Assembly: GCA_016198905.1 (NCBI GenBank)
Contig: JACQHR010000032.1
Span: 74,390 to 138,389 of the forward strand
Source of the DNA: Candidatus Omnitrophota bacterium
Lineage (GTDB): Bacteria; Omnitrophota; Gorgyraeia; Aquiviventales; Aquiviventaceae
Direction: 5' to 3'
Length of the DNA: 64,000 nucleotides
Shown: positions 1,273 to 20,717 of the stretch, in pieces
How the letters are laid out: every line of letters starts with the position of its first letter
How positions within the stretch are numbered: the stretch's first letter is position 1
Notes under the pieces: generated by a model
Database searches by the model: none
What the model was told of the DNA's origin: nothing
What the model saw: the letters and a program-made list of their open reading frames with translations, nothing else
Made by a program: the position numbers and the translations under genes

Positions 1273-1781
1273 CGTTTCACGTTTCAGGTTTCACGTTTCA
1301 CGTGACGGACGATGACAACCGTACAGCGATTTGAACAATTGGAAGCTTGGCAGAGAGCACGGGAACTTGCCCAAGAGGTTTATGCGATCACAGGGAAGGG
1401 TTCCTTTGCAAAGGATTTTATCCTCAGAGACCAAATTCGGCGAGCTGCGGTTTCGGTTGTCGCGAATATCGCAGAGGGATTTGAGCGCAGCGGCCGAGGT
1501 GAGTTCATCCAATTTCTTGCCGTGGCCAAGGGTTCAGTCGGAGAGTTGAGGTCGCATGTATACATTGCTCACGATCAGGGGTATCTCAGCAAGGCCGAGT
1601 TTGAGCGGTTAAGCGATCTCGCCATCCGGACCGCACAGTTGGTAGGCGGGCTGATGAATTATCTGAGAGGGTCTAGCATTAAAGGCACCAAGTTCAAGAA
1701 GGTTGTCGGACTGAGTGTTGTTTCCACGCGAGGCGACTTTGCCCAACGTGAAACCTGAAACGTGAAACGCGAAACGAAACG
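1273..1781 (+). repeat. E1: heptamer-armed palindromic cassette carrying a four-helix-bundle gene
   Basis: Left arm 1274-1304 is GTTTCAC GTTTCAG GTTTCAC GTTTCAC GTG. Right arm 1747-1781 is CGTGAAAC CTGAAAC GTGAAAC GCGAAAC GAAACG. 1273-1295 is a perfect 23-nt reverse complement of 1747-1769. The cassette starts 4 nt after the upstream TAG and ends at the ATG of the next GT2. Confidence 0.9.
1312..1758 (+). CDS. Four-helix-bundle protein (23S rRNA intervening-sequence protein / S23p family, TIGR02436-like)
   Basis: FEQLEAWQRARELAQEVY...RDQIRRAAVSVVANIAEGFERSG..EFIQFLAVAKGSVGELRSH matches the family hallmark (W-Q-A...ANIAEG...A.GS..E). The stop TGA lies inside the right arm of E1. Confidence 0.85.
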   Translation: MTTVQRFEQLEAWQRARELAQEVYAITGKGSFAKDFILRDQIRRAAVSVVANIAEGFERSGRGEFIQFLAVAKGSVGELRSHVYIAHDQGYLSKAEFERLSDLAIRTAQLVGGLMNYLRGSSIKGTKFKKVVGLSVVSTRGDFAQRET

Positions 1782-7953: not shown

Positions 7954-8933
7954 GCGAGCCGATCGTGAGCGTCGTCATCGCCACGCGCAACCGGGCCGCG
8001 ATGCTTAAAGAGGCCATCGCCAGCGTCGGCGCGCAGACGTATCAGGATTGGGAGCTCATCGTGGTGGATGACGGCTCGACCGATCAGACGAAGCGGGTCG
8101 CGCAGCAAGCGGCGAAGGACGATCCGCGCGTCCACTATCTTCGGCAGCCGGCCAGAGGCGGCGTGTCGAAAGCGCGCAATGCCGGCATCCACGCGGCGCG
8201 CGGGCGCTACATTGCGTTTCTCGATGACGATGACCAATTCGTTGCGGAGAAGCTCGCGACTCAAGTGGTGCACCTCGACCGTTCGCCCGAGGTGGGCTTC
8301 GTCTACGCGCAGAGCGAATGGGTGGATCGCCGCGGGACTTCGTTGGGAGTTCAGCCGACGGCGCCAGTGACTGATCTCAAGGGGCTGGTGGAGCACTGCG
8401 CGATCCCCCTGCAAACCGTCATGTGTCGTCGGGAACTGATCGAGCGGGTGGGCGGCTTCGATGAGCGGCTGTCGATCGGCGAAGACTACGACTTGTGGCT
8501 GCGGCTGGCGCGCATCACCCGGTTTGAGTTCGTCGCGCGTCCGCTGGTGCGCTACGGGGTGCATGGCGCCAATACGTGCAACGACAGCATCCGGCTCTAC
8601 GAGCAGCGGGCGATCATCCTGGCGCGCGTGCCGCTCGACCGTGCGCGGGGAATCACGTGGTGGTTCAAGCGCCGGCGCCTGGCGATCAACGCGTATCGGC
8701 TGGCGAGGCTGCACCACGAGGCGCGCGCTTTCGCGCAGGCGTCGGCGCATTTTGCCCGCGCGGTCGTCTACGACCCGATGGTCGGCCTGGCCATGGCCGA
8801 GCCGCGCCCTCGGGGGCTGGCGCGCCTGTGGGTGTCGCTGAAACCCTATCTGGCGATCGTGCTGCTCCTGATCGGGGTCAGTCCCCAAGCACGAAAAGTA
8901 GCGAGATCACCCGATTGGGGTCTGACCCCATGA
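7950..8933 (+). CDS. Glycosyltransferase family 2
   Basis: VSVVIATRNR, VVDDGSTDQT, AFLDDDD. ATGA start/stop overlap with the preceding gene. The track ORF's long N-terminal extension (from 7368) overlaps the previous GT2 out of frame. Confidence 0.9.
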   Translation: MSEPIVSVVIATRNRAAMLKEAIASVGAQTYQDWELIVVDDGSTDQTKRVAQQAAKDDPRVHYLRQPARGGVSKARNAGIHAARGRYIAFLDDDDQFVAEKLATQVVHLDRSPEVGFVYAQSEWVDRRGTSLGVQPTAPVTDLKGLVEHCAIPLQTVMCRRELIERVGGFDERLSIGEDYDLWLRLARITRFEFVARPLVRYGVHGANTCNDSIRLYEQRAIILARVPLDRARGITWWFKRRRLAINAYRLARLHHEARAFAQASAHFARAVVYDPMVGLAMAEPRPRGLARLWVSLKPYLAIVLLLIGVSPQARKVARSPDWGLTP

Positions 8934-11464
8934 GGATTGTGATTGTGGCACCAGAGGTGTTTCCGGTTCCACCGATCCGAGGCGGGGCGGTGGAGACCGT
9001 CATCGAGGAAATCTCCGCGCAGTTCCGTGACCACAAGGTAACCATTCTCGGCATTGCCGACGCGTCACTGCCGGTGCAAGAGACGAAGGAGCATCGGACA
9101 TATCGCCGTTGGAAGCGCACGGTCATTGATCGACTCTTGCTCTCGACGTGGAAGCTGCCGTTCAAACAGAGCAACTCGCCGTGGTACTACTGGCCCTACC
9201 AGCATTGGATCGCCAGGCAGGTGCAACGGCTGCGTCCCGACGTCGTGTGGGTGCACAGCCGCATCCAATTTGCGCCGGCGATTCGCCGCGCCGCCCCTCA
9301 CGCGCGGATGATCGTCAGCGTCCATCAACTGAGCACGCTGCGCGATGAGCGCGTCTGGCAGCAAGCGCGCGTCGCGTGTTGTGATGTGATCGCCGGTGTC
9401 AGCCAATTCATGATCGAGGCCATCGCTGCGCGGTATCCATGGACGCAACCCAAGACGCACGTGCTCTCAAACGGCGTTGACGTGACAGCCTATCAGCCGT
9501 GGTGGGCGCAGTCGGCCAGGCGCGAGCGGATGCGCCGCGAGCAGGGCTGGGGTGACGCGCCGGTGATCTTGTATGCCGGGCGGCTCGTCGAGCAAAAGGG
9601 CGTGCATGTGCTCGCCGATGCTTTCAAACAACTGGTAAGGGGTGAGGGGCGGGAGACAGGGGGCGCGGGATCCAACACGAAACCAATGCTGGTCATTGCC
9701 GGCGGCCACACGTACTCCGATGGGACAGAAACCGACTATATCAGGCAGTTGAAGCGCACGCTTGAGCCGCTGGGATCGCAGGTCGTCTGGCTGGGGTATC
9801 AACCGTCGAGCGCGCTGGTGAGCCTGTACGCGGCCAGCGACGTCGTCGTCGTCCCATCAATCAATCCGGAAGCGTTTTCCATGGTCACGGTTGAAGCGAT
9901 GGCCTCGGGTCTGCCGGTCGTTGCCTTCGCGCACGGCGGCCCAGCGGAGATCATTCGCCACGGCATCGATGGGTTCTTGGTGCCGGTCTCCCGCGGCGCG
10001 GAGGGTCTGGCCGAGGCGCTGCAAGCGTGCGTCAGCAACACCACCCTGCGGGAAGCCATCGGCCGCGAGGCCAGACGGACGGTAGAGGAGCGCTTTACGT
10101 GGCAGCGTGTGGCAGAGAGCTTCCTCAAATTGACTCAGGGACAAGGGACAGGGGACAGGGGGCGAGGGAATGCCCTTCCTACGCCCCGCGCCCCGCGCCC
10201 CGCGCCCCAGACACGCGCCGTCCCTATTCTTATTGCTGAGTCAGGATCAGGCTACGGAGGCAGCGCGAAATACCTCAGCGAGCTGGTGTCGCTGCTGGAT
10301 CGGCGACGCTTCCACGCGCAGGTGGTGGCGGCTGAAGAGGGGCCGTTCATTCGCAAGGTCAAAGAGCAGGGAGTGCCAGTAGCACTGAGGCCAAGTTGGA
10401 GATTCGCTTGGGGGCAGGGGGCGGGAGACGAGGGGCGGGGGAAGGGCCAGCACACAGCACTCAGCACGAACGTGAAACATGAAACGCGAAACGTGAAACG
10501 AACGTCGCATGTCCGGTTCGCGCTGGTTGCTGCTACACAGCTTTTGATCATGGTTCCAGCAATTGCCCTCTGGTTGAAGTGGCGGAGGATCCGGCTGGTG
10601 CATCTGAATAACGAGATCCTCTCGCACGTGCCGCTGGCGCTCGGAGCGAAACTCGCCGGCTGCCGCGTGGTGTGCCACCTGCACGGCTGGCGTCCGTTCA
10701 CGAGGCTGGAGCGCGCTGTGGCCGGTGTCGTTGATGAGTTCGTCTGCATTTCGGAGGCTGGCGCGCGGTACTTCGAATCGCAACTGCCGCATCGCCGGGT
10801 GGCCGCGATTCCCAACGGTATTCTGCTCAATGGTCAGTTGGACGGCCTTGACGTGAAACGAGCGCAGGTCCGTCGGCAGTTGGGGATCCAGCCCCATGAC
10901 GCGGTCATCGCCATCATCGGGCGCTTGGTGCCGTGGAAAGGCCAGGCAGTGTTCTTGAAGGCGTTGGCGGATGTCAGCCAGCGACACCCGGACGTGGTCG
11001 GCCTCATCGTGGGGCACGATGCCTCGCCAGGGCAGAGCTATCTGACACAGTTACAGTCGACTGCGCGTGAGCACGGCCTCGCTGAGCGTGGGCGCGTGCA
11101 CTTTGTCCCGTGGCTCGAGGACGTGTGGGGCATTTATGCCGCGGCGGACATCATCGTGCACGCTTCGACGCAGCCGGAGCCGTTCGGACTCGTGCTCATT
11201 GAAGCGATGGCGGCGGGCAAGCTCGTGATTGCCACGCGATCCGGTGGAGTCGTCGATATCGTCACGGATGGCCGGACAGGACTGCTGGTTGAGCCGGGCG
11301 ATCCGGATGGGCTGGCGCGCGCCATCACGCAGGTGGTGACTGATCCTTCGCGCGCCGCTGCGCTGGCTGAGGCCGGCCGGCAGCGCGCGCGAGACGTGTT
11401 CACCATGGAGCGCAACGCGCAGGCAGTCGCGCAGGTCTATCAGCGGCTGATGGTGTGCCGATGA
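8930..11464 (+). CDS. Double GT4 glycosyltransferase (two complete GT-B modules joined through element E3)
   Basis: Module 1: MRIVIVAPEVFPVPPIRGGAVE...VVPSINPEAFSMVTVEAMASGLPVVAF. Module 2: ILIAESGSGYGGSAKY...ASTQPEPFGLVLIEAMAAGKLVIATRSGG. ATGA overlap at 8930. Contains E2, E3 and E4 in frame. Confidence 0.85.
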   Translation: MRIVIVAPEVFPVPPIRGGAVETVIEEISAQFRDHKVTILGIADASLPVQETKEHRTYRRWKRTVIDRLLLSTWKLPFKQSNSPWYYWPYQHWIARQVQRLRPDVVWVHSRIQFAPAIRRAAPHARMIVSVHQLSTLRDERVWQQARVACCDVIAGVSQFMIEAIAARYPWTQPKTHVLSNGVDVTAYQPWWAQSARRERMRREQGWGDAPVILYAGRLVEQKGVHVLADAFKQLVRGEGRETGGAGSNTKPMLVIAGGHTYSDGTETDYIRQLKRTLEPLGSQVVWLGYQPSSALVSLYAASDVVVVPSINPEAFSMVTVEAMASGLPVVAFAHGGPAEIIRHGIDGFLVPVSRGAEGLAEALQACVSNTTLREAIGREARRTVEERFTWQRVAESFLKLTQGQGTGDRGRGNALPTPRAPRPAPQTRAVPILIAESGSGYGGSAKYLSELVSLLDRRRFHAQVVAAEEGPFIRKVKEQGVPVALRPSWRFAWGQGAGDEGRGKGQHTALSTNVKHETRNVKRTSHVRFALVAATQLLIMVPAIALWLKWRRIRLVHLNNEILSHVPLALGAKLAGCRVVCHLHGWRPFTRLERAVAGVVDEFVCISEAGARYFESQLPHRRVAAIPNGILLNGQLDGLDVKRAQVRRQLGIQPHDAVIAIIGRLVPWKGQAVFLKALADVSQRHPDVVGLIVGHDASPGQSYLTQLQSTAREHGLAERGRVHFVPWLEDVWGIYAAADIIVHASTQPEPFGLVLIEAMAAGKLVIATRSGGVVDIVTDGRTGLLVEPGDPDGLARAITQVVTDPSRAAALAEAGRQRARDVFTMERNAQAVAQVYQRLMVCR
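9637..9669 (+). repeat. E2: solo G-rich arm inside GT4 module 1
   Basis: AAGGGGTGAGGGGCGGGAGACAGGGGGCGCGGGA matches the left-arm consensus and is translated in frame as RGEGRETGGAG. No C-rich partner follows. Confidence 0.8.
10136..10208 (+). repeat. E3: G-arm/C-arm palindromic element fusing two GT4 cistrons
   Basis: Left CAGGGACAAGGGACAGGGGACAGGGGGCGAGGG, loop AATGCCCTTCCTA, right CGCCCCG x3 + CGCCCC. Translated as GQGTGDRGRGNALPTPRAPRPAP with no stop. Confidence 0.85.
10410..10504 (+). repeat. E4: chimeric three-block heptamer element inside GT4 module 2
   Basis: G-arm GGGGGCAGGGGGCGGGAGACGAGGGGCGGGGGAAGGG, then CAGCACA CAGCACT CAGCACG, then AACGTGA AACATGA AACGCGA AACGTGA AACGAAC (the E1-type GTGAAAC arm). 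In frame as GQGAGDEGRGKGQHTALSTNVKHETRNVKRT. Confidence 0.85.
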
Positions 11465-12957
11465 GCGTCGTCAACCAAACCGCAGCCCGCGCAGGCGCAC
11501 GCGCCATACCCCCGCTGCACACCGTGGTCGACCGCCGCATCTGGACGTTTGTCGCGCTCATCGGATTCCTCGGCTGGCTCGTCATGAAGGAAATCACGCT
11601 GCCCTCCGGTCTCATGGCGGCTTGTGCGGGGCTGGGATTGCTCGGGCTGTTCATGGTCAGCGTCCAGCGGCCGGAGCTGTCGCTGTACGTGCTCGTGGCA
11701 TACCTGCCGTTCAGCCGGCTCCTCGTCGGAGATTTCGGCACCGAAGCGTACGCCTTCAACCTCACGAACATCCTGACGCTGTGGGTCCTTAGCGCCTATG
11801 TGCTGCGTTGCATGTCGCAAGGCCGGCAGCCCTTCCAATCCGCCCCGATGAGTCGCCTCGTCCTGGCGTTCTGCGCGCTGAGCGGATTCTCGCTGCTGCA
11901 GGGAGGCTTTGCGTACGGCTCCTGGTACTTCTGGCATTACCTCACTCCGCTGAAGCAGTGGCTGACGCCGATCTTCTTTTACTTTCTGGCGCTCTGGGTG
12001 GTGCGGGATCGGAAAGTTCTCAAGACGGTCGTGGTGCTCATGATGGTCGCCGTCACGGTGGTAGCGCTCATGGCGATCCGGGACTATCTGAACAACTCGG
12101 GCAGCAGCCTCGAGAAATCCCGGGTCGGCGGGATCGCCGAGCAGCCCAACACGCTGGGGGCGTTCTTCGTGTACTACATGTTCTTGTTCGCCGGCTTCTT
12201 CCTGACCTATCGCAAGAAGTTCAAGGTGTGGGGGCTGCTCGTTCCCTTTCTGCTGTGTTTCCGCGGCATCATGGTGACATTTTCCCGCGGGGCCTATTTC
12301 GGATTCGCCGCCGGCGGCCTCGGAGCGTGTTGGCACCGCAATAAGGCGCTGTTTGTGGTCGCCGCCGCGCTGTTATGGTTTGCCGTCATGAATCCCTGGA
12401 TGCTGCCGAAGGGGATTCGGTATCGGATGGGGCAAACCGTCGTCAGCCACGGCAGCGACAACGCACCGGGCGACGCGCCGATCGAGGATACCTTGGAAGC
12501 CAGCGCCGGAAACCGCGTGCGCATTTGGCGGGCGACCATCGAGATGATCAAGGACCATCCGTGGTGGGGGGTGGGCTACGGGGCGTTTCCCGCCTACATC
12601 GGGGTGTACACCGGCGGGCACTTCGAGGCGGTCGATGCCCATAACACGTATTTGCTCCTTGCCGCCGAGTTGGGGATCCCAATACTGGTCGTGTTCTGCG
12701 TGGTGATCCTCGTGGCGTGGTATCACACCAGGCGACTCTACCTGGGGACCCACGACTTCGCTATGAAGGCCATCACCCTAGGTTTCCTCGCCGGGCTGGA
12801 AGGGCTCATTGTGGTGAACATGTTCGGCTCGCGGATGGATGACCAGGCGGTCAGCAGCTACTTTTGGATCTTGTGCGGCCTCATCATGCGCGGCGTGTTG
12901 ATCGAGCGGGAAGAGATGTTGGGGGCATGGGGCGCGAGACGTGGGGCGAGGGCATAG
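11461..12957 (+). CDS. O-antigen ligase / Wzy-like polytopic membrane protein (paralog 1)
   Basis: About 10 or more hydrophobic segments. Central GIMVTFSRGAYFGFA and periplasmic-loop ...HNTYLLLAAELGI (Wzy_C-like). ATGA overlap with the upstream gene. The C-terminal tail LGAWGARRGARA is encoded by the E5 left arm. Confidence 0.8.
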   Translation: MSVVNQTAARAGARAIPPLHTVVDRRIWTFVALIGFLGWLVMKEITLPSGLMAACAGLGLLGLFMVSVQRPELSLYVLVAYLPFSRLLVGDFGTEAYAFNLTNILTLWVLSAYVLRCMSQGRQPFQSAPMSRLVLAFCALSGFSLLQGGFAYGSWYFWHYLTPLKQWLTPIFFYFLALWVVRDRKVLKTVVVLMMVAVTVVALMAIRDYLNNSGSSLEKSRVGGIAEQPNTLGAFFVYYMFLFAGFFLTYRKKFKVWGLLVPFLLCFRGIMVTFSRGAYFGFAAGGLGACWHRNKALFVVAAALLWFAVMNPWMLPKGIRYRMGQTVVSHGSDNAPGDAPIEDTLEASAGNRVRIWRATIEMIKDHPWWGVGYGAFPAYIGVYTGGHFEAVDAHNTYLLLAAELGIPILVVFCVVILVAWYHTRRLYLGTHDFAMKAITLGFLAGLEGLIVVNMFGSRMDDQAVSSYFWILCGLIMRGVLIEREEMLGAWGARRGARA

Positions 12958-12997
12958 TCATATGCCAACCATACCCCCACCCCCCGCCCCCCGCCCC
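12919..12997 (+). repeat. E5: palindromic element with upstream stop and downstream start codon in its loop
   Basis: Left TTGGGGGCATGGGGCGCGAGACGTGGGGCGAGGG, loop CATAGTCATATGCCAACCATA (TAG 12955-57, ATG 12962), right CCCCCACCCCCCGCCCCCCGCCCC. Confidence 0.85.
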
Positions 12998-14344
12998 ATA
13001 CTTGGTTGTATCTTGAGTCAATTCCCGCGATACGATGAGGCGTTCATTCTGCGCGAGCTTGTCGCGTTGTCGCAGGACTCGCCGCGGCTCGTGATCTTCT
13101 CGCTGCGTCCGTGCCGCGATCGCGTGATCCACGAGCAGGCGAAAGCCCTGCAGCCGCAGACAGTCTACGCGCCCTTCGTGTGGTCATGGCAGGTCTGGCG
13201 CAGCCACGCGCATGTCCTTCAGCACAATCTGAGAGGATATCTTCGCGCGCTTGGATGGATCATCAGCCGGCATTGGCGGCATCCGGTGATTCTGGTGAAG
13301 ACGCTGGCATTTTTCCCAAAGACCGTGCACTTCGCGAGGCTGGCCCAACAGCGGGGCGTCACGCATGTGCATGCGTTTTGGGCGACGTACCCGGCGGCGG
13401 CGGCGATGATCATGCGTGAGCTGACCGGCATCCCATTTAGCATGTCCGGCCACGCGCATGATATTCACACGATCAATCCGACGCTGACCGAGAAGATGCA
13501 GCATGCGCGCTTTGTCGTGACCTGCACGCAGGCGAATCGTGACTATTTGTTATCGTTAGTCAATAGTCATGGGGCAAGGGGCGGGAGACAGGGGGCAGGG
13601 ACAACCAAAACTATTGTGGAAGGTTTTTCCACGCCCCCCGTCCCCCGCCCCCCGTCCCATGTTATGGTGAGCTACCACGGCGTCGATCTTTCCCGCTTCG
13701 CCGCGCGGCCGAAGGATCACGGGCCGGTGTGCCGGATCCTCGCGGTGGGCAGCCTGTTGCCGTGCAAAGGGTATGAGACGCTGATTGAGGGCTGCACGCG
13801 GCTGCGTGAGCGCGGCGCGGCGTTTCACGTGACCATCGCCGGCGGCGGGCCGCTCGAACGCGCGCTGCGCCAGCGGATCGCGAAGCATGCGCTTACGCAG
13901 CAGGTGACGATGACGGGCTTTGTCAGCCAGGAAACGGTCGCAGCGCTCTATCAGCAAGCGCACCTCGTGATCCTGCCCTTGGTGTCCAAGATCCATTGGG
14001 GCATCCCGAACGTCCTGATCGAAGCGCTGGCTACGAAGACGCCGGTCATCTGCTGCGATCTGCCGTCGATGCGCGAGCTGGTGGTGCACGGCGAAAGCGG
14101 CTGGATCATCCCTGAGAACGACCCCAACGCGTTAGCGACTTCAATCGTGACGCTCTGGAAAGACGCCGCGTTGCGGCAGCGGATCGCCGACGCAGGGTAT
14201 CAGCGCGTGGTCGAGCGGTTTTCGCTGGAGGAAACTGGACGAAAGCTACGAGAGATCTTTAGTCAGGGGCAGGGGGCGGGAGACAGGGGGCAGGTGCAGA
14301 CCGATTTTCCCGCGCCCCGCGCCCCGCGCCCCAAAGTTCCTTAA
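12962..14344 (+). CDS. Glycosyltransferase family 4
   Basis: GT-B C-domain: ...ILPLVSKIHWGIPNVLIEALATKTPVICCDLPSMRELV. Start ATG lies in the E5 loop (alternative GTG 12941). Contains E6 in frame, and E7 forms its C-terminal tail. Confidence 0.8.
   Translation: MPTIPPPPAPRPILGCILSQFPRYDEAFILRELVALSQDSPRLVIFSLRPCRDRVIHEQAKALQPQTVYAPFVWSWQVWRSHAHVLQHNLRGYLRALGWIISRHWRHPVILVKTLAFFPKTVHFARLAQQRGVTHVHAFWATYPAAAAMIMRELTGIPFSMSGHAHDIHTINPTLTEKMQHARFVVTCTQANRDYLLSLVNSHGARGGRQGAGTTKTIVEGFSTPPVPRPPSHVMVSYHGVDLSRFAARPKDHGPVCRILAVGSLLPCKGYETLIEGCTRLRERGAAFHVTIAGGGPLERALRQRIAKHALTQQVTMTGFVSQETVAALYQQAHLVILPLVSKIHWGIPNVLIEALATKTPVICCDLPSMRELVVHGESGWIIPENDPNALATSIVTLWKDAALRQRIADAGYQRVVERFSLEETGRKLREIFSQGQGAGDRGQVQTDFPAPRAPRPKVP
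13568..13661 (+). repeat. E6: palindromic element in frame inside GT4
   Basis: Left CATGGGGCAAGGGGCGGGAGACAGGGGGCAGGG, 30-nt loop, right ACGCCCCCCGTCCCCCGCCCCCCGTCCCATG. Translated as HGARGGRQGAGTTKTIVEGFSTPPVPRPPSH. Confidence 0.85.
14264..14332 (+). repeat. E7: palindromic element forming the C-terminal tail of GT4
   Basis: Left CAGGGGCAGGGGGCGGGAGACAGGGGGCAGG, loop TGCAGACCGATTTTCC, right CGCGCCCCGCGCCCCGCGCCCC. Translated as GQGAGDRGQVQTDFPAPRAPRP, followed by the TAATG junction at 14342-14346. Confidence 0.85.
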
Positions 14345-15204
14345 TGGCCATTCTGCGCACAGTCCTCAGCGATATCACCTATCATGCGAGGCGATTGACA
14401 CCTGGCGATGGAGAAGGATTGCGCATCCTGATGTACCATCGCGTCACCGATGCGCATCCCGGGAATCGGCTGTGCGTGCCGGTGGCGCGGTTTGCGGATC
14501 AGATGCGGTGGCTGGCGGAGCAGGGGTACCGCACAATCTCATTCGCTGAGGCGGTGGAGTTAGTGAGGGGGCAGGGGGCAGGGGGCGGGAGACGGGGGAA
14601 TAGCCGACAAGCAGAATCTGCGGCATTCCCTCGCCCCGCGCCCCGCGCCCCGCGCCCCAAACTGATTGTCCTGACATTTGATGACGGCTTCGAGGATAAT
14701 TTTCTCTACGCCTATCGCGCGCTGGCGCAGTACGGCTTCACCGGCTGCTTCTTCGTGCCAAGTGCCTTTATCGCGTCCGGACAAACCGGGCATGAGGCGG
14801 TCGATCAACCGATGAGCTGGGCGCAATTGAGTGAGCTCGCACGGGAAGGCCACGAAGTAGGAGCGCATTCGATCAGCCACGCGAAGCTCACACACATTGA
14901 TCCGGTGCAGATGCGCGAGGAAGTGCGAGGATCGAAAGAAGCGATCGAGCAAGGACTGCAGCAGCCCGTGAGATTCTTCTGTTACCCGTCGGGTGACTAT
15001 AATGCGGCCGTGAAACAGGCGGTGCGCGACAGCGGCTACGACGGGGCGTGCACCGTGGAGCCGGGCGCGAACCGTTCCGGGGCTGATCCCTTTGCGTTGA
15101 CACGCACGGAGATCAGCGCGTTTGATTCGCTGTGGGATTTTGAGAAGAAGATCGCGGGCGCGTTTGATTGGATGCATCGCGTCGTCCAATGGACGAAACG
15201 ATGA
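14344..15204 (+). CDS. Polysaccharide deacetylase (CE4/NodB-type), paralog 1, with in-frame E8 insertion
   Basis: LTFDDGFEDN, GAHSISH and YPSGDYN motifs. TAATG 1-nt overlap with the upstream gene. Confidence 0.85.
   Translation: MAILRTVLSDITYHARRLTPGDGEGLRILMYHRVTDAHPGNRLCVPVARFADQMRWLAEQGYRTISFAEAVELVRGQGAGGGRRGNSRQAESAAFPRPAPRAPRPKLIVLTFDDGFEDNFLYAYRALAQYGFTGCFFVPSAFIASGQTGHEAVDQPMSWAQLSELAREGHEVGAHSISHAKLTHIDPVQMREEVRGSKEAIEQGLQQPVRFFCYPSGDYNAAVKQAVRDSGYDGACTVEPGANRSGADPFALTRTEISAFDSLWDFEKKIAGAFDWMHRVVQWTKR
14565..14658 (+). repeat. E8: palindromic element in frame inside the deacetylase
   Basis: Left GAGGGGGCAGGGGGCAGGGGGCGGGAGACGGGGG, loop AATAGCCGACAAGCAGAATCTGCGGCATT, right CCCTCGCCCCGCGCCCCGCGCCCCGCGCCCC. 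Translated as GQGAGGGRRGNSRQAESAAFPRPAPRAPRP. Confidence 0.9.
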
Positions 15205-16466
15205 TCAGACATCAGACCTCAGACATCAGACCACAGTCGGACTCAAGACCCAAGACCCAAGACCCAACAGGTGCATTTTCAGCCCCGAGTCTTGAGTCCC
15301 GAGTCTTGAGTCCCGAGTCTCGGGTCCCAGTGAAGGTCATATTCATCATTTGGTCGCTTGGATTAGGCGGCGCAGAACAGGTTGTGATCCGGTTAGCAGC
15401 CGGGCTTGATCGTCGCCGATTCGCGCCGATCATTTGCTGCATGAACGAGCCCGGGCCGTTTGCCACGCAAGCGATCAGCCGCGGCATCGAGGTGATTGCG
15501 CTGCATAAGCGCGGCGCGATCGATCTGGGCATGCTGATCAGGCTCACGCGCGTGATGCGGCAGCGTCGGCCCGGCATCGTGCACACGCATCTGTGGGGCG
15601 CCAGCTTCTGGGGGCGTCTCGCGGCGCGTCTGGCGCGCGTCCCGGTAGTCATCGTCCATGAGCACGGCATGCAGCCCTATCGCGGGGCCTTCCATTTTTT
15701 CTGCGATCGATGGTTAGCGCGGGTCACGTCGCGCATCCTGTTTGCCTCGCAGCACGTCCTGCAGATCTACCGGGCAAAGACGGCCGTCGCGGAATCCAAG
15801 TGCATGGTGATTCCGAATGGTGTCGCGGTGTTACGGCTGCCGGATCGAATCGCGGCTAGGCGCGCGCGCGGATGGTCGCCGGACGATCAAGTGATCCTCA
15901 GCGTCGGGCGGCTCTCGCCGGAAAAAGGCTATGAGGATTTGCTGAAGGCCTTCGCGCTCATCGCTTCCCGCGCGCCGCACGCGCGGCTGGTGCTCGTGGG
16001 AGATGGCGCGCAACGCGCGGCGCTTCAGACGCTGCAGGCGCAGTCAGGGCTCAATGGCCGCGTGACGTTTGCGGGCCGGCAAGAGGATGTCACGGGATGG
16101 CTGGCCGCGGCGGATCTCTACGTGCAGCCCTCGCATCGAGAAGGGCTGCCGCTGGCGGTGCTGGAGGCGATGGCCGCCGGCGTGCCGGTGGTGGCCACCG
16201 ACGTCGGCGATCTGCGCTACGTCATCACCGAGGGACGCACCGGCTACCTCGTGCCGGCCCGGCAGCCGGACACGCTGGCTGCGCGATTGGTCGACGTCCT
16301 GGAACATCCCGAGCAACAGCCGCGCATCGCCGAGGCCGCGCGAGCGCTCGTGCGCACGCGCTTCTCCGACGAACAGATGATCCGCGCCATTGAGCGCGTG
16401 TATGAGGACGAGCTGTCGTGTTGGGGCAAGGGGCAGGAGACGGGGGGCGGGGGAGGGAACCGCTGA
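15201..16466 (+). CDS. Glycosyltransferase family 4
   Basis: VKVIFIIWSLGLGGAEQVVIRLAAGL... and QPSHREGLPLAVLEAMAAGVPVVATDVGD. ATGA overlap at 15201. The first ~43 codons are E9 heptamer repeats, so the true start could be later (e.g. GTG 15331). Confidence 0.8.
   Translation: MIRHQTSDIRPQSDSRPKTQDPTGAFSAPSLESRVLSPESRVPVKVIFIIWSLGLGGAEQVVIRLAAGLDRRRFAPIICCMNEPGPFATQAISRGIEVIALHKRGAIDLGMLIRLTRVMRQRRPGIVHTHLWGASFWGRLAARLARVPVVIVHEHGMQPYRGAFHFFCDRWLARVTSRILFASQHVLQIYRAKTAVAESKCMVIPNGVAVLRLPDRIAARRARGWSPDDQVILSVGRLSPEKGYEDLLKAFALIASRAPHARLVLVGDGAQRAALQTLQAQSGLNGRVTFAGRQEDVTGWLAAADLYVQPSHREGLPLAVLEAMAAGVPVVATDVGDLRYVITEGRTGYLVPARQPDTLAARLVDVLEHPEQQPRIAEAARALVRTRFSDEQMIRAIERVYEDELSCWGKGQETGGGGGNR
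15205..15328 (+). repeat. E9: variant heptamer element (different unit sequences)
   Basis: TCAGACA TCAGACC TCAGACA TCAGACC; then ACTCAAG ACCCAAG ACCCAAG ACCC; loop GGTGCATTTTCAG; then GAGTCTT GAGTCCC GAGTCTT GAGTCCC GAGTCTC GGGTCCC. GGACTCAAGAC is complementary to GTCTTGAGTCC. Confidence 0.8.
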
Positions 16467-16495
16467 ATGCGGAACGCGGAGTGCGGAATCGAGGA
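16422..16495 (+). repeat. E10: G-rich arm followed by a TGCGGAA heptamer block (no C-arm)
   Basis: TGGGGCAAGGGGCAGGAGACGGGGGGCGGGGGAGGG ... TGCGGAA CGCGGAG TGCGGAA TCGAGGA. The GT4 stop TGA 16464-66 lies between the two blocks. Confidence 0.8.
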
Positions 16496-16540
16496 AGCAA
16501 TTGAGACCTAACGCGAAGCGAACGTCACGTTGGGGCGGCG

Positions 16541-18025
16541 ATGAGGAGTGACGCGGTCTTGCCGGCAGCGATGGTGAGGCGCCTGCTGCCCGAGGTGGAT
16601 GAGCGGGCGTGGATGTTCGTGCTCGCGATCGGCGCCTTCGCCGTGTTGGGGCTCAAAGAGATGCCGTTATCGGCACCCCTGGTCTTGGGTCTCTTCGCTG
16701 CCGGTGTGGTCGGGTTGATTGCGGCCGGCTGGCTGGGACCCGAAGCACCGCTGTACGCGCTCATCGCGTACTTGCCCTTCAGCGGGCTGCTGGCCGGTGG
16801 CGCGTCCATCCCGTTTCTCAACCTGACGAATTTGCTTATCCTACTCATCGTGGTCAGCCACATTTGGCGGCAGCGTCGGAATGAGCTGCAGGTCTTGACG
16901 TCTGCGCCGATGAATGCGGTCATCGCGCTTTTCGCCGCGCTGGCGGTTCTGTCGTGGATGCGCGCCGGATGGATGTATGGCGGCTGGTACGCGTCGACGC
17001 ATGCCGTGGCTCTCTTGCGTTGGCTGCGCCCGATGGCGTTCTACTTCGTGGCGCTGTGGGCCGTGCGGGATGCGCGCGCACTAAAGACCGTGCTTGCGCT
17101 CATCGCGGTGGCGGTGACGGTCGTCGCGCTGATGGCGCTGTGGGAGTATCTCGATCGCGCCGGCAGCACCATCGAGCGCTCGCGCGTGCAGGGAATCGCC
17201 GGCGAAGCCAACCGCATGGGGGCGTTCTTCGTGACGTACATGTTCCTGTTCCTTGGCTATTTCTTCGTGACACCGCTGCGTCGCTACGGGTGGCTGATGC
17301 TCGTGCCGTTTCTCTTGTGCGTGCGCGGCATCATGGTGACCTTCTCGCGCGGGGCGCATGTGGCGTTCGCTGCGGGGGTGCTCGTCGCTTGTTGGATGCG
17401 CAGCAAGTGGCTCTTCGTGGTTGCGGCCGCCGCCGCGGCATTCATCATCACGCATCCGGCCCTGCTGCCGGGAGGATTTCGCACCCGCATCGAGCAGACC
17501 ATTCGTCCTGGTCAGCGACTCGACCTGGACGCCGGCACCTCGCAGGAGCTCTCGCGGCAATTGGAGCCCAGCGTCGGGCGACGGGTTGAAGCATGGAACG
17601 GCGGCTTGGCGATGGTGCGCGCGCATCCCTGGGTTGGCGTCGGGTTCGGAGGATTCCGGCGGTTCATTCCCCACTACACGCAGGGCCGAGTGAGCTCCAT
17701 GGCGGCGCACAACACGTACCTGTGGCTGGCGTCGGAGATGGGCATCCCCACGCTGCTGGTGTTTCTGCTGTTTCTCGACCTGCTGGCGTACCACACGGTG
17801 TGGCTGTATCGGCACAGCCAGGATGTCTGGCTGCGGGCTCTTGGCCTTGGCGTGTTGGCCGGCGCCGCGGCGCTGTCTGTGGCCAACGGTTTCAGCGAGT
17901 GCCTCGATTCCTCCGAGGAGGTCGTGGGTTATTTCTGGATCCTCTGCGCGCTCGTCATGAGAGGCGTCCTGCTTGAAAAACAACAGGCTGGGGCAAGGGG
18001 CGTGAGACAGGGGGCGGGGGAATAG
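16541..18025 (+). CDS. O-antigen ligase / Wzy-like polytopic membrane protein (paralog 2)
   Basis: Collinear with 11461..12957 (e.g. GIMVTFSRGAHVAFAAG, AHNTYLWLASEMGIP). The tail GARGVRQGAGE is encoded by the E11 left arm. Confidence 0.8.
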   Translation: MRSDAVLPAAMVRRLLPEVDERAWMFVLAIGAFAVLGLKEMPLSAPLVLGLFAAGVVGLIAAGWLGPEAPLYALIAYLPFSGLLAGGASIPFLNLTNLLILLIVVSHIWRQRRNELQVLTSAPMNAVIALFAALAVLSWMRAGWMYGGWYASTHAVALLRWLRPMAFYFVALWAVRDARALKTVLALIAVAVTVVALMALWEYLDRAGSTIERSRVQGIAGEANRMGAFFVTYMFLFLGYFFVTPLRRYGWLMLVPFLLCVRGIMVTFSRGAHVAFAAGVLVACWMRSKWLFVVAAAAAAFIITHPALLPGGFRTRIEQTIRPGQRLDLDAGTSQELSRQLEPSVGRRVEAWNGGLAMVRAHPWVGVGFGGFRRFIPHYTQGRVSSMAAHNTYLWLASEMGIPTLLVFLLFLDLLAYHTVWLYRHSQDVWLRALGLGVLAGAAALSVANGFSECLDSSEEVVGYFWILCALVMRGVLLEKQQAGARGVRQGAGE

Positions 18026-18437
18026 CAATGCCTATGACGTCTGCAGCGATCACAACCTTCAAAGACCTTCGCGTCTGGCAGGAAGGCATCCAGTTGGTCA
18101 AGGAGATCTATGCCCTCTGCGTCAAATTGCCGAAGGAAGAACTCTACGGCTTAGCGAGTCAGATGAAGCGCGCGGCGGTGTCGGTTCCATCCAACGTAGC
18201 AGAAGGCCATGCTCGAAAACACCGCGCCGAGTACAGACAGTACGTGTATATTGCGATCGGCTCGCTTGCGGAACTCGAGACGCACGTGCTCATTGCTAAG
18301 GAGTTGAACTTGTCTAATGGTGATGAGCTGACCCCGGTCCTTACACGCATTGACCGTTTGCGAGGGATGTTGCTGACGCTCGGGAGACGACTCGGATGAC
18401 GCCGTCCCCTCGCCCCTCGCCCCTCGCCCCTCGCCCC
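17989..18437 (+). repeat. E11: G-arm/C-arm palindromic cassette carrying a second four-helix-bundle gene
   Basis: Left TGGGGCAAGGGGCGTGAGACAGGGGGCGGGGG (17989-18020). Right (CCCCTCG)x4 + CCCCA (18406-18437). About 25 of 32 positions are complementary by hand alignment. Confidence 0.9.
18028..18399 (+). CDS. Four-helix-bundle protein (23S rRNA intervening-sequence protein family), second, divergent copy
   Basis: FKDLRVWQEGIQLVKEIY...QMKRAAVSVPSNVAEGHARKH..EYRQYVYIAIGSLAELETH. Starts 2 nt after the ligase TAG and has an ATGA overlap with the next GT4. Confidence 0.85.
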   Translation: MPMTSAAITTFKDLRVWQEGIQLVKEIYALCVKLPKEELYGLASQMKRAAVSVPSNVAEGHARKHRAEYRQYVYIAIGSLAELETHVLIAKELNLSNGDELTPVLTRIDRLRGMLLTLGRRLG

Positions 18438-20717
18438 ATTCGCGTGATGTTCGTGATCTGGTCGCTCGGCCTCGGCGGAGCGGAGCAGGCGGTGATCCGG
18501 CTGGCCGCGGGCCTTCGGCGCGAAGGGTTCGAGCCGTTGATCTGCTGTCTCAACGAGCCGGGTCCCTTCGCTGTGCAAGCGCAGGCCGCCGGCGTGCCCG
18601 TCGTGGCGCTGCACAAACGGTGGCGCTATGACGCGCGCGTGCTCTGGCGCTTGATGCGGTTGATGCGGCAGTGGCATCCGGACGTCGTGCACACGCATCT
18701 GTGGGGCGGCAACGCGTGGGGGCGGACGGCGGCCTGGCTGGTGGGTGTTCCGGTCATCGTCACGAGCGAGCGGAATCTGGATCCTTGGAAACGCTGGTAC
18801 TATTTTGTGATCGACCGCGTGCTCGCAGCGCGGACCACGACGTTGCTGGCCGTCTCCGAGTCCGTGCGGGCGTTCTACGAGCAGCACGGGGTCGGCCGCG
18901 GCCGCTGGCAAGTCTGCTACAACGGCGTCGATATCGCCGACGTAACACCCCGGCAGCGAGGAGCCGTGTTCGCGCAACTGGGCGCGCAGCATGGCGAGCC
19001 GGTCGTCGGCTTCATCGGACGCTTGGCTTCGGCAAAGGCTCCGGATGTGTTCGTCGAGGCGGTCGCACAGGCGCGCCGAACACTCCCTTCGCTGAAAGCG
19101 CTCATCGTCGGCGACGGGCCGCTGCGCAGCGAGGTTGAAGCCTTGGCGCGTCGATTGGGATTGGATGGGCATCTCGTGGTGACCGGCGTGCGCGAGGATA
19201 TCCCGGAGCTGCTGGCGGGGATGGACGCGCTGATGGTGTCGTCCGAGCGCGAGGGGCTCTCCATGGCGATGTTGGAGGCCATGGCGGCAGGAGTCCCGGT
19301 TATCGCGACTCGAGTAGGAGGCACTCCTGAACTCATCGAGCCGGGGATGACCGGACTGCTTGCGCCTCCAGGCGCGCCCGACGCATTGGCGCGCCAGTTG
19401 GTGGCACTCCTGACCAATCCCGCGCACGCGCAGGCCATTCGCGATGCGGCCCGCGCGCGAGTGGCGAAGGATTTTTCCATGCAGCGCGTGGTGGCGACGC
19501 ATGCAGCAGTGTACCGCCGCGGCCTCAAGCAGGCCAACCGTGCAGGACTCAGTGATCGCGTCAAAGAGGCGGCGGCATCGCTTCCCATCGCTCACCGCGC
19601 TCGCCTCCGCGTCATGCATGTCATCGACGATCTCGGACTCGGAGGCGCGCAGCGGCAGCTCGTGGAGCTCGTCAAGGCGTTCCCGCGGGATCGCTATGAG
19701 CTGCACGTTGTGAGTCTCTCGACGACGAAGACGGACTACGCGGAGGCGCTCCACGCAGCGGAGATTCGCCTGACGCAAATCCCGCAGGCCGGCAAATGGG
19801 ATGGCCGTTGTTTTTCGACGCTCTCCACGCTGATCAAAACCGAGAAGCCTTCCATCGTCCACACGTGGCTCTTTACCGCCGACCTCTATGGCCGCATGGC
19901 GGCGTGGGTGGCGCATGTGCCGGTCATCATCAGCGCGGTGCGCAGTGTGGAGCCGGATAAGCCCGCGCACTACGTCGTGGTGGATCGCGTCCTGCGCAAC
20001 ATCACCAGTGCCTTCACCGTCAATGCGCGCGCGATTGGCGAGGTGCTGACGGCGCGCGAGCATGTGCCGACGGAGAAGATTCATACGATCTATAACGGGC
20101 TCGATCTGCGCGCCCTGGATCCATCCCGCGTGAATGGAGCGATTCGGCGCGCCATCGCCGTCGGCGCCGACGTCCCCCTGATCGGGATCGTCGGGCGTCT
20201 AGCGCCGGTGAAGGATCACGCCACGTTTCTGCGCGCGGCAGTGCGCGTGCATCGTGAAGCGCCACAGGCGCGGTTTCTCATCGTCGGCAACGGTTTGCTT
20301 CACGGCGAGCTCGAGCAGTTGAGCCAATCATTGGGCCTGAGCGATGTCGTTCGCTTTCTCGAGAGCCAATCCAACGTAGCCGAGGTGTTCGCCGCGCTCG
20401 ATGTCGTCGTCGTGTCCTCCCTCTATGAAGGCTGCTGCAACGTGATCCTCGAAGCGATGGCGATGGGCAAGCCCGTGATCGCCACAGCCGTCGGGGGCAA
20501 TCCTGAGCTCATCAGCGACGGGCAAACCGGGCTGCTCGTGCCCGTGGGCGATGATGCGAAGCTGGCCGAGGCGATGGTGAGCCTGCTGCGTGATCCGCAG
20601 CGCGCGCAGGCGATGGGCCGCTCGGGGCGAGCGCGCGTGGAGTGCGACTTCGCCATCGAGCGGATGGTCGTCGCAACCGATCGCGTCTATCAGAAACTGT
20701 TGAGTCGCGCCCCATGA
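18396..20717 (+). CDS. Double GT4 glycosyltransferase (natural tandem fusion, no element at the joint)
   Basis: Module 1: IRVMFVIWSLGLGGAEQAVIRLAAGL...SSEREGLSMAMLEAMAAGVPVIATRVGG. Module 2: LRVMHVIDDLGLGGAQRQL...SSLYEGCCNVILEAMAMGKPVIATAVGG. The N-terminal MTPSPRPSPLAPRP is the E11 right arm (alternative ATG 18447). Confidence 0.85.
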   Translation: MTPSPRPSPLAPRPIRVMFVIWSLGLGGAEQAVIRLAAGLRREGFEPLICCLNEPGPFAVQAQAAGVPVVALHKRWRYDARVLWRLMRLMRQWHPDVVHTHLWGGNAWGRTAAWLVGVPVIVTSERNLDPWKRWYYFVIDRVLAARTTTLLAVSESVRAFYEQHGVGRGRWQVCYNGVDIADVTPRQRGAVFAQLGAQHGEPVVGFIGRLASAKAPDVFVEAVAQARRTLPSLKALIVGDGPLRSEVEALARRLGLDGHLVVTGVREDIPELLAGMDALMVSSEREGLSMAMLEAMAAGVPVIATRVGGTPELIEPGMTGLLAPPGAPDALARQLVALLTNPAHAQAIRDAARARVAKDFSMQRVVATHAAVYRRGLKQANRAGLSDRVKEAAASLPIAHRARLRVMHVIDDLGLGGAQRQLVELVKAFPRDRYELHVVSLSTTKTDYAEALHAAEIRLTQIPQAGKWDGRCFSTLSTLIKTEKPSIVHTWLFTADLYGRMAAWVAHVPVIISAVRSVEPDKPAHYVVVDRVLRNITSAFTVNARAIGEVLTAREHVPTEKIHTIYNGLDLRALDPSRVNGAIRRAIAVGADVPLIGIVGRLAPVKDHATFLRAAVRVHREAPQARFLIVGNGLLHGELEQLSQSLGLSDVVRFLESQSNVAEVFAALDVVVVSSLYEGCCNVILEAMAMGKPVIATAVGGNPELISDGQTGLLVPVGDDAKLAEAMVSLLRDPQRAQAMGRSGRARVECDFAIERMVVATDRVYQKLLSRAP

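Follow-up and report, generated by a model that had tools for sequence, protein, structure and literature searches.

Within a polysaccharide gene cluster of a Candidatus Omnitrophota bacterium, a repeat element denoted E3 separates the two halves of a long open reading frame that encodes two glycosyltransferase modules of the GT4 family. This arrangement raises the question whether the element made the fused gene or entered a gene that was already fused. We address this question through the analysis of the surrounding 64,000 nucleotides of DNA (hereafter, the window), homologous proteins and metagenomic contigs that carry related elements.

The double GT4 gene and its linker

The gene (8930..11464, plus strand) is identified by the ORF listing, Pfam searches and 21 full-length homologues. 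It comprises a single frame of 844 codons, from the ATG at 8930 to the stop codon at 11462-11464, along which a Glyco_transf_4 or Glyco_trans_4_4 domain followed by Glycos_transf_1 is detected twice, in accord with the initial annotation, which described two complete GT4 modules in one frame. Module 1 (8930..10135, plus strand; residues 1-402), as delineated by Pfam and the secondary structure of an AF2 model, consists of Glyco_transf_4 at residues 21-185 plus Glycos_transf_1 and ends in a helix at residues 391-402 (...WQRVAESFLKLT). Module 2 (10226..11464, plus strand), as delineated by Pfam, AF2 and a start-codon scan, begins with I433 (ILIAESGSGYGG...) and contains Glyco_trans_4_4 at 443-630 and Glycos_transf_1 at 645-819, its first strand being modelled at residues 431-437; the scan for in-frame start codons found none belonging to module 2, either in the window ORF or in relatives. 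The AF2 model (mean pLDDT 84.5) shows two folded modules and, together with the Pfam domains and alignment A1, places the protein in the tandem double-GT4 family, for which the PDB contains single-module relatives only. By exact look-up, neither the 844-residue protein nor the product of ORF 14344-15204 has a database record, and the cluster collection lacks ORFs 11455-12957 and 49386-50585. The window contains a second double GT4 gene at 18396-20717.

Element E3 (10136..10210, plus strand), defined by repeat alignment, motif, AF2 modelling and RNA folding, is 75 nt long and encodes Q403-Q427. It starts where it was previously placed (10136-10208) and ends two bases further downstream. The G-rich arm (10138-10170) is made up of the units GGGACAA, GGGACAG, GGGACAG, GGGGCGA and GGGAA, with five G-tracts; it is separated by a 7-nt centre from the C-rich arm (10178-10210), a perfect (CGCCCCG)x4 array. 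The arms contain no stop codons in any frame, and translation of the ORF runs through the entire stretch (TQGQGTGDRGRGNALPTPRAPRPAPQTRAVPILIAESG) as originally reported. Of the 31 residues in the linker, 25 come from E3, and 6 are left when it is removed. The encoded peptide is modelled as a disordered coil (pLDDT <50 over residues 405-428) that follows the final helix of module 1 and precedes the opening strand of module 2. The predicted RNA fold of E3 (-39.5 kcal/mol, z = -2.1) gives a weaker hairpin than that of any other complete copy of the element, its short helices being broken by internal loops. Terminator and promoter prediction found neither at E3, and the possibility that it is an intrinsic terminator (a GC-rich hairpin followed by a T-run) was rejected, there being no terminator-like site.

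Two more elements are in frame in the same gene. Site a (9638..9685, plus strand; motif, alignment and AF2) is a remnant consisting of the G-arm only in module 1 (GEGRETGGAG), which is missing from most orthologues and has pLDDT <50 at residues 241-247. Site c (10410..10502, plus strand; arrays, fold and AF2) consists of three serial 7-base arrays, (GGGGCNN)x4, (CAGCACN)x3 and (GTGAAAC)x4, in a loop of module 2; it lacks a hairpin (z = +1.3) and has pLDDT <50 at residues 496-522. All three element-encoded stretches are modelled as coil, and pLDDT <50 occurs elsewhere only at residues 11-18 and 73-79. Relative to homologues P0001 and P0002 the protein is a mosaic with breakpoints at approximately residues 115-120 and 325-335; these do not match the element positions, and E3 was rejected as a recombination junction.

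A family of hairpins with heptameric arms

The first 27 kb of the window contain 13 sites with copies of the repeat family. Units of 7 bases make up both arms, which are G-rich on the left and C-rich on the right, and the left arm follows a conserved, non-uniform motif, GGGGC NN GGGGC NN GAGAC NN GGGGC. The window contains 14 matches to the G-arm motif, versus 0.01 expected, and period-7 arrays cover 468 nt versus 9 nt in shuffled sequences, periods 5, 6 and 8-12 showing no excess. E3 has the family layout, a G-rich arm of 7-nt units, a short centre and a C-rich arm of 7-nt units, although its left arm, of GGGACAR units, has diverged from the core motif by more than two mismatches. Six further complete copies in the window can be aligned with the whole of E3, including the centre, and an origin of E3 by de novo local repeat expansion is rejected on this ground.

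Eight of the 13 sites are located at junctions of co-oriented genes, and five copies lie within ORFs. The observation made at the outset, that other junction copies carry or abut stop and start codons, holds at three sites. The copy at the Wzy/GT junction (12921..12999, plus strand; fold z = -3.0) has the upstream stop TAG 12955 and the downstream ATG 12959 in its loop; a long form (17989..18441, plus strand) carries TAG 18023 and ATG 18028; and the copy at 14265..14336 (plus strand) forms the C-terminal tail of the GT encoded by 12941-14344, with the stop next to it at 14342-14344. Other junctions contain a hairpin of different 7-base units, ATCAGAC and CCAAGAC (15203..15313, plus strand; z = -5.3); a G-arm and, after it, a (GCGGAAN)x3 array, recognised by motif, between GT and Wzy2 genes (16422..16500, plus strand); and two further family copies, one at 26360..26456 (plus strand; z = -3.6) and one in the opposite orientation at 27267..27345 (minus strand; z = -3.8), with the GAGA-containing arm on the minus strand. 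Among the in-frame copies, site d (13563..13662, plus strand; z = -6.4) lies within the GT ORF 12941-14344 at a position where loci L082, L081 and L156 also have an array, and site e (14563..14662, plus strand; z = -5.5) lies within the polysaccharide deacetylase ORF 14344-15204 at a position where L082 also has one. Same-site insertions in different genomes differ in length by whole codons, as expected if the insertions are translated.

The window and L082 have arrays at the same six positions, and L082 is not the closest relative overall. Random insertion plus tolerance does not account fully for this sharing.

Long forms of the element enclose genes. The one at 17989..18441 consists of a G-arm, a gene for a four-helix-bundle protein (18028-18399; PF05635/TIGR02436) and a C-arm; in another (1271..1778, plus strand), the arms (GTTTCAC)x4 ... 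(GTGAAAC)x4 flank a second four-helix-bundle gene (1312-1758). PF05635 ORFs are also found between complementary termini in L098, L119, L121 and L161; E3 has no ORF. PF05635 is the family of the "23S rRNA intervening-sequence protein" (S23p), and among PDB entries, the solved S23p structure 2GSC, from Xanthomonas, matches the window's loop gene best. A search of the first 87 loci and the window with a four-helix-bundle HMM matched just the two window genes, and the cargo ORFs of L126, L089 and L112 have no Pfam match. On many metagenome contigs, short copies are in frame in conserved genes, namely those for RluD (one site, occupied in two cases), ValS, TsaD and Lnt, and in that for a neighbouring GT, encoding peptides that resemble GQGAGDKGRG...PRP.P. 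Altogether, 51 of 84 G-arms are paired with a C-arm (at most 8 mismatches in 26, within 800 nt).

The element copies examined showed no target-site duplication, their flanks being inverted, such that they extend the palindrome, and not direct. Neither a transposase or other mobility enzyme nor a parent insertion sequence was detected, and the loop cargo is a PF05635 gene or ORFs of unknown function. No Rfam family matches any element, and the window has no rRNA. Because an Rfam scan of 40 element-bearing metagenome loci also found zero rRNA, there is no direct bridge from this family to rRNA intervening sequences. Open-access literature searches, which constitute weak evidence, returned no account of a heptamer-arm hairpin family or of PF05635 genes in such hairpins outside rRNA.

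Possible slippage or cleavage at E3

A 7-nt unit equals two codons plus one base, so that slippage in E3 could toggle the gene between a fused state and one in which only module 1 is made or the modules are split, and thereby vary the surface polysaccharide. The perfect C-arm array would lend itself to such contingency switching: by computation, loss or gain of one unit places a stop at residue 482 or 439, respectively, with module 1 intact, loss of three units restores the frame, and with +1 or -2 units an ATG preceded by GGGGGCGAGGGA in the loop of E3 (position 10170) is in frame with the whole of module 2. Furthermore, all arrays are confined to the polysaccharide cluster at 1-27 kb, with none in 28-64 kb, the heptamer copy number differs among Coxiella strains (PMC4990558), and two reports describe heptameric repeats as driving hmw1A phase variation in Haemophilus (PMC8262952, PMC12721329). 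However, the array is short, with only four units, the ATG may be in frame by chance, and the same elements are present in RluD, ValS and TsaD, housekeeping genes whose inactivation would be detrimental. Nor is there a length variant in two other assemblies: a Logan contig produced by a different assembler (L083, SRR12113385) is identical to window positions 5345-10380, with 0 mismatches over 5,036 nt that include all of E3, and L084, from another run (SRR12113390), agrees as far as it reaches, up to nt 10206. We give a switch at E3 a low probability.

The initial annotation also proposed that RNA processing at the hairpin separates the two halves. An enzyme such as RNase III that cut the mRNA at the E3 hairpin could accomplish this or could down-regulate the message. 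Indeed, the long forms of the family contain the gene for the intervening-sequence protein between their arms, Coxiella's intervening sequence (IVS) has the same layout, with a stem that is cut by RNase III, an S23p ORF and tandem heptamers (PMC4990558), and Correia elements in mRNAs are likewise RNase III substrates (PMC10969869). Yet the fold of E3 is weak when set against its best siblings (z = -2.1 versus -5.5 and -6.4), the 3' fragment would have neither an in-frame start codon nor a ribosome-binding site, the severed 5' fragment would be a non-stop mRNA, and the reading frame is kept through all in-ORF copies. Cleavage into two enzymes is unlikely, given the weakness of the hairpin and the absence of a start codon from module 2, and for RNA processing in general we consider the probability to be low.

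The fusion is older than the element

The central claim of the initial annotation was that E3 had replaced the stop/start junction between two adjacent GT4 genes and so fused them. This scenario draws on the sibling copies at gene junctions with stops and starts in their loops and on arms that are open in every frame. The comparison with relatives, set beforehand as the test that could overturn it, uncovered an ancient fusion with unrelated linkers. All 21 homologues (42-62% identity, 99-100% coverage, 747-853 residues) are single double-GT4 proteins encoded by single ORFs, with no separate genes in element-free relatives; the few that have source names come from Omnitrophota or Verrucomicrobiae. 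Their linkers are 6-35 residues long, stop-free and unrelated to E3 or nearly absent, with 6-8 residues in 6 of the 16 aligned homologues. The commonest ancestral size is 6 residues, the same length that remains in the window after subtraction of the 25 residues of E3. The element is absent from the linker DNA of L081, L082, L085, L086 and L087, and two of these orthologous loci, L085 (P0004, 59% identity) and L086 (P0005), contain no period-7 arrays at all, yet are fused. In addition, module 2 is devoid of a start codon in every member of the family. The searched databases contained no relative above 62% identity; a genome-collection scan with alignment A1, using back-translated patterns that amount to generic GT4 motifs, retrieved only distant GT4 genes with 22-41% identity in the best segment. 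Fusion by E3 is therefore refuted by the 21 fused homologues with their unrelated linkers, and the suggestion of an element-made linker in a bifunctional enzyme holds for the translated linker and fails for the origin of the fusion. At the level of sequence comparison, the common ancestor of a wide range of relatives already possessed the double GT4 protein as one fused polypeptide.

An assembly or sequencing artefact, that is, a stop or frameshift missed in a hard-to-assemble repeat, has next to no probability: contigs do tend to break at the 7-base repeats (L084 ends inside E3, L083 just before site c and L081 in an array), but the independent contigs L083 and L084 give the same bases, which dispels the earlier concern about a hidden stop, and the fused orthologues make a stop unnecessary.

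We conclude, with a probability of roughly 0.85, that E3 is a lineage-specific in-frame insertion in the old linker of an already fused GT4 gene, which lengthened the tether, the fusion itself being older. A 75-nt copy of the family hairpin would have landed in frame in a linker of approximately 6 residues; the ribosome would read through it, adding about 25 residues, Gly/Arg-rich and then Pro/Ala-rich, that would remain disordered between the folded modules, and the protein would remain a two-module enzyme with a longer tether. E3 would be tolerated because its arms are stop-free in any frame and the linker is variable in length. The alignments establish, as far as sequences can, that E3 is an insertion relative to the orthologues, a member of the repeat family and read through in frame; insertion here denotes only presence versus absence among relatives. 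E3 is probably translated, as read only from the conservation of the frame, and appears to be nearly neutral; it presumably came by the same spreading process as its sibling copies. For the double GT4 enzyme, this means that the bifunctional architecture is old and ordinary and that the repeat only lengthened the tether; annotators should infer neither a repeat-made fusion nor a pseudogene here. The element family is a more interesting result than the fused gene, and from its copies one could learn how proteins cope with low-complexity peptides that are inserted time and again.

Comparison with known systems

WbdA, of the Escherichia coli O9a O-antigen pathway, is a naturally fused tandem GT4 enzyme. 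The protein analysed here resembles it in having two GT4 (GT-B) modules in one polypeptide encoded in a polysaccharide gene cluster, and belongs to an orthologue family that is uncharacterised.

The elements themselves share features with several classes of bacterial repeats. Miniature inverted-repeat elements (MITEs) of the Correia and ERIC type are co-transcribed with genes and can give rise to in-frame fusions, and their stems can be targets of RNase III (PMC10969869). The present family is similarly short and multi-copy, with terminal inverted arms, but differs in that no target-site duplication, parent transposase-bearing insertion sequence or transposase was found, and in carrying a four-helix-bundle protein gene or unknown ORFs in the loop. 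Rickettsia palindromic elements (RPEs) are dispersed, occur in frame in unrelated genes and are translated as extra peptides compatible with the protein fold (PMC10969869). The elements described here are also in-frame palindromic insertions, with RluD, ValS, TsaD, Lnt and GT4 genes as hosts, and the in-ORF copies likewise keep the frame and are stop-free, those of the double GT4 gene being modelled as low-confidence coil. In contrast to RPEs, they are 75-100 nt and not approximately 150 nt in length, have arms of 7-nt tandem units, contain genes in the loop of the long forms and are mostly found at gene junctions; the sequences and host phyla are unrelated, and composition and host make homology implausible.

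The G-rich heptameric simple sequence repeats (SSRs) of Xanthomonas and Nostoc (GGGNATC/GGGGAYT), and cyanobacterial STRRs, prefer spacers between co-oriented ORFs and include 70-75 convergent inverted pairs that could fold into stem-loops (PMC4692102). The present elements share with them the 7-nt unit and at least four G-tracts, which suffice for a G-quadruplex, and E3 has the at least four tracts of at least three G that characterise the heptameric G-quadruplex-type repeats (Rehm et al. 2015). In contrast to these SSRs, the left arm is a conserved non-uniform motif rather than a pure repeat, ORFs often contain copies, and the loop contains gene cargo, which is unreported for those SSRs.

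Finally, the intervening sequences of 23S rRNA that contain an S23p ORF (Coxiella, Leptospira, Brucella) differ from the present elements in location, given that the latter reside in mRNA, between genes and inside ORFs, and E3 sits in an ORF and not in 23S rRNA helix 9, 25 or 45; moreover, E3 is short and ORF-less, with a degraded stem. The long forms share several features with these intervening sequences: complementary termini, a PF05635 four-helix-bundle ORF in the loop and, in Coxiella, heptameric tandem repeats in the stem region, with a copy number that varies among strains (PMC4990558). A tentative possibility, to which we assign a minor but appreciable likelihood, is that E3 and its siblings are mRNA-dwelling, mostly miniaturised relatives of the 23S rRNA IVS, and that in E3 gain or loss of 7-nt units acts as a fuse/split switch for a surface-polysaccharide enzyme. 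Under this scenario, the widespread hairpins with 7-nt-unit arms may have a full-length form that includes PF05635 or other small cargo genes; they may spread without leaving a target-site duplication, settling at junctions and in frame inside ORFs; the same permissive positions may be refilled in diverged genomes; and +1 or -2 units may, through the loop ATG predicted in E3, yield two separate enzymes, making the switch reversible. If the kinship is true, uncultivated bacteria offer many natural test cases for the role of the IVS stem and S23p, a puzzle since about 1990. The family links three subjects that are mostly considered apart, namely the heptameric repeats of bacteria, the in-frame palindromes of the Rickettsia type and the IVS-protein genes of fragmented 23S rRNA.

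The reading frame across E3

The double-GT4 ORF at 8930-11464 extends from ATG 8930 to the stop codon at 11462-11464 through 844 codons without a stop (ORF listing and translation), and Pfam matches delineate two complete GT4 modules, in each of which Glycos_transf_1 comes after an N-terminal Glyco_transf_4 or Glyco_trans_4_4 domain. E3, a 75-nt copy of a hairpin repeat at 10136-10210, spans codons Q403-Q427 in the linker between the N-terminal module 1 and the C-terminal module 2, where the translation reads ...RVAESFLKLT QGQGTGDRGRGNALPTPRAPRPAPQ TRAVP ILIAESGSGYGGSAKY..., identical to the read-through peptide quoted in the initial annotation. An assembly slip at E3 is ruled out by the agreement of two other assemblies: Logan contig L083 (SRR12113385, different assembler) corresponds to window 5345-10380 with 0 mismatches, and L084 (SRR12113390) matches the window to base 10206, breaking there inside E3. 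There is no in-frame start codon near the beginning of module 2 in the window, and no Met at this position in any aligned relative. The 844-residue protein is missing from the protein collection, where neighbour proteins of the same NCBI MAG (MBI39970xx) are present; the public record may list it as a pseudogene or lack an annotation for it.

Age of the fusion

The initial annotation held that E3 had replaced an intercistronic junction, fusing two GT4 genes; it proposed comparison with relatives as a check and named an ancient fusion with an unrelated linker as the refuting outcome. A search of ~5.8 billion proteins detected 21 homologues at 99-100% query coverage (747-853 residues), and all 21 have the same double GT4 domain set; the few with a named source come from Omnitrophota and Verrucomicrobiae MAGs. 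The 16 aligned homologues are 43-62% identical to the window protein. Measured from the last helix of module 1 to the conserved (V/I)LIAESG strand of module 2, their linkers consist of 6-35 residues of unrelated sequence with 0 stops, and in 6 of the 16 the linker is just 6-8 residues long; the window linker has 31 residues, or 6 once the 25 encoded by E3 are subtracted. None of the five closest loci (L081, L082, L085, L086 and L087) has a trace of the E3 element in its linker DNA, and L085 and L086, with zero 7-base arrays, still encode the fused protein. The gene order double GT4 -> Wzy is kept in L081, L082, L085 and L087. An element-made fusion is thus refuted by the ancient fusion with unrelated linkers seen in the relatives, element-free loci included, and the fusion is much older than E3.

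Compared with the homologous proteins P0001-P0005, the window's double GT4 is a mosaic, with residues 1-115 nearest P0001 (80-88%), residues 120-330 nearest P0002/P0003 and the remainder nearest P0001/P0004; the breakpoints do not fall at elements. A second double GT4, at 18396-20717 (773 residues), has no element in its linker. Module 2 of this protein is matched by TIGR03088, a family of PEP-CTERM/XrtA-system glycosyltransferases. The start codon of the gene overlaps the stop codon of a four-helix-bundle gene, and the N-terminus as annotated runs through the C-arm of the element before it.

The repeat family in the window

E3 is a real member of a repeat family that consists of a G-rich left arm, a short centre and a C-rich right arm. 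The left-arm core is GGGGC NN GGGGC NN GAGAC NN GGGGC, with the GAGAC unit fixed; the right arm is homogenised and often forms a pure (CGCCCCG)n array. The window contains 14 matches to the core motif (at most 2 mismatches) vs 0.01 expected from shuffles, and 7-base-period arrays cover 468 bases vs 9 in shuffles; no excess over shuffles was found in the window for arrays at periods 5, 6 and 8-12. Six other complete copies align end to end with E3, which is the shortest, and the E3 right arm is identical in 25 of 26 bases to the right arms at 14309 and 14635.

All 13 element sites lie in the first 27.4 kb, a polysaccharide gene cluster; the remaining 36 kb (27400-64000) contain zero 7-nt arrays and zero G-arm motif matches. 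Eight sites are located at junctions of co-oriented genes, and some junction copies carry a stop and a start codon in the loop (TAG 12955/ATG 12959; TAG 18023/ATG 18028), in line with the earlier observation that the same element abuts stops and starts at other junctions. Five sites are inside ORFs, in frame: E3, sites a (9638-9685) and c (10410-10502) of the double GT4, 13563-13662, and 14563-14662. Site c comprises (GGGGCNN)x4, (CAGCACN)x3 and (GTGAAAC)x4 in series, in frame and without a hairpin; the terminal (GTGAAAC)x4 array corresponds to the right arm at 1745-1778 of another element, so that two element types may have been combined here as a chimera. The gene junctions at 15203-15313 and 16456-16500 contain 7-nt arrays of other units (ATCAGAC; CCAAGAC with an inverted partner; GCGGAAN).

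A second hairpin repeat family, GGGGTCAGTCCCCAAGCACGAAAAGTAGCGAGATCACCCGATTGGGGTCTGACCCC, is represented at 8876-8930 (fold z = -4.9), directly before the double-GT4 start codon, and a near-identical copy occupies the same place in L081, where the adjacent proteins are just 62% identical. Copies of this family in L081 are at 787-842, 1-60 and 2880-3010, and two are in frame in module 2 of P0001. Elsewhere in the window, the 3' end of the GT2 gene 1782-2732 recurs ~850 nt downstream as a 66-nt direct repeat (2668-2733 and 3522-3587, 85% identity), and 36498-36612 matches group II intron domains D1-D4 in Rfam (RF02001, 44 bits), with no ORF of at least 250 residues after it on the same strand.

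Occupancy and cargo in relatives and metagenomes

The L082 locus, whose double GT4 is 55% identical to that of the window, carries 7-base arrays of different units (GAGACAA/GGGGACA, GTCTCAT) at the same six positions: double-GT4 sites a and c, the Wzy/GT junction, internal and C-terminal sites of the next GT, and an internal site of the deacetylase. The internal GT site is also filled in L081 and L156, the linker site of E3 is filled in the window alone, and L085 and L086, as related as L082, are devoid of such arrays. Array occupancy is dynamic, given that P0002 and P0003, with near-identical linkers (17/19 residues), differ in site a occupancy and site c length. The recurring positions fit both vertical inheritance with repeat-unit turnover and repeated colonisation of a few permissive sites.

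The core motif was detected in at least 120 metagenome contigs. Among the matches listed, 51 of 84 non-redundant G-arms have a C-arm partner within 800 nt (at most 8 mismatches in 26; control stretches typically give 10-13), and most of these pairs are spaced by 9-100 nt, a second group by 340-475 nt. Within elements, the dinucleotides that vary in the two arms show covariation (0.47 complementary vs 0.32 +/- 0.03 with partners shuffled); in many copies, the window's included, they are mismatched, and the stems of such copies are 5-bp G:C blocks split by 2x2 internal loops. Short copies are found in frame in conserved genes, namely RluD, ValS, TsaD, Lnt and the neighbouring GT, the RluD insertion being at one shared site in two organisms.

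In four long copies (L098, L119, L121, L161), the loop contains a four-helix-bundle gene. The window has two such long forms, at 17989-18441 with GGGGCNN-type arms and at 1271-1778 with (GTTTCAC)x4 and (GTGAAAC)x4 arms, the gene in each case sitting exactly between the inverted 7-nt-unit arms. These loop genes match Pfam PF05635 '23S rRNA intervening-sequence protein' (E = 1e-34), TIGR02436 and the Xanthomonas structure 2GSC in the PDB (E = 1.5e-21). The presence of arm-gene-arm units in different contexts (Wzy/GT4, wzm/wzt and, twice, yggS/proC) speaks for mobility of the entire unit. The loops of other long copies have AT-rich ORFs without a Pfam match; the same G-arm/C-arm pair encloses such ORFs, of 115-233 residues, in L126, L089/L162 and L112, which suggests that the cargo is variable.

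Effect of E3 on the protein and alternative roles

An AlphaFold2 model built on a 17-sequence alignment (mean pLDDT 84.5) predicts two well-folded GT-B modules. Residues with pLDDT under 50 make up two short loops near the N-terminus (11-18 and 73-79) and exactly the three element-encoded stretches, 241-247, 405-428 (E3) and 496-522, all modelled as coil, with the E3 peptide placed between helix 391-402 and strand 431-437. This peptide is Gly/Arg/Gln/Asp-rich, then Pro/Arg/Ala-rich, and all frames of the element arms are free of stop codons, as follows directly from their sequence. The best reading is that E3 lengthens a flexible tether by a peptide that is translated and tolerated; the translated linker offered as one alternative in the initial annotation is supported by the in-frame reading of E3 and the predicted coil between two folded modules.

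The other alternative, RNA cleavage at the E3 hairpin in the mRNA, is unlikely. The element architecture matches that of the Coxiella 23S rRNA IVS, where complementary termini form a stem that is cut by RNase III, the loop contains an S23p ORF, and tandem heptamer repeats (GACAGAT) vary in number between strains (PMC4990558); Correia elements within mRNAs are RNase III targets as well (PMC10969869). However, the E3 hairpin is the weakest among the complete copies (-39.5 kcal/mol, z = -2.1, RNA fold), compared with z = -5.5 for the copy at 14562 and z = -6.4 for that at 13566, no hairpin is formed at site c, and, after cleavage, module 2 would have no initiation site.

Given the 7-nt unit, gain or loss of one unit shifts the frame, so slippage within E3 could conceivably act as a frame switch, an alternative of low probability. 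By computation, translation stops at residue 482 after loss of one unit and at residue 439 after gain of one, with module 1 intact in both cases, loss of three units restores the frame, and gain of one or loss of two puts ATG 10170 (in the E3 loop, behind GGGGGCGAGGGA) in frame with the whole of module 2; heptameric repeats are reported to drive phase variation in Haemophilus (PMC8262952, PMC12721329). Against such a switch, there is no variant allele at E3 in the two other assemblies (the whole of E3 in L083; to base 10206 in L084), and the same element family is also inserted in housekeeping genes. Predictions of terminators and promoters gave none at E3.

Comparison with known systems

In the open-access literature, we found no description of PF05635 genes in heptamer-arm hairpins in mRNA contexts or of in-frame insertions of this heptamer-arm family. 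Membership in the IVS class, as defined, is rejected because the elements are not in rRNA, and a classical MITE is rejected because there is neither a target duplication nor a transposase relative. A G-quadruplex is a further possible mode of action beyond a passive linker: the E3 G-arm contains five runs of at least 3 G, in agreement with the heptamer repeats of Xanthomonas and Nostoc, which are able to form G-quadruplexes and likewise occur as convergent pairs between co-oriented ORFs (PMC4692102). For the double-GT4 gene, the result is ordinary. The element family is a moderately novel variation on known kinds. It behaves most like the Rickettsia palindromic element, an in-frame insert that is translated and tolerated, whereas its architecture and cargo are nearest to the S23p-bearing rRNA IVS and its repeat type to the G-rich heptameric SSRs.
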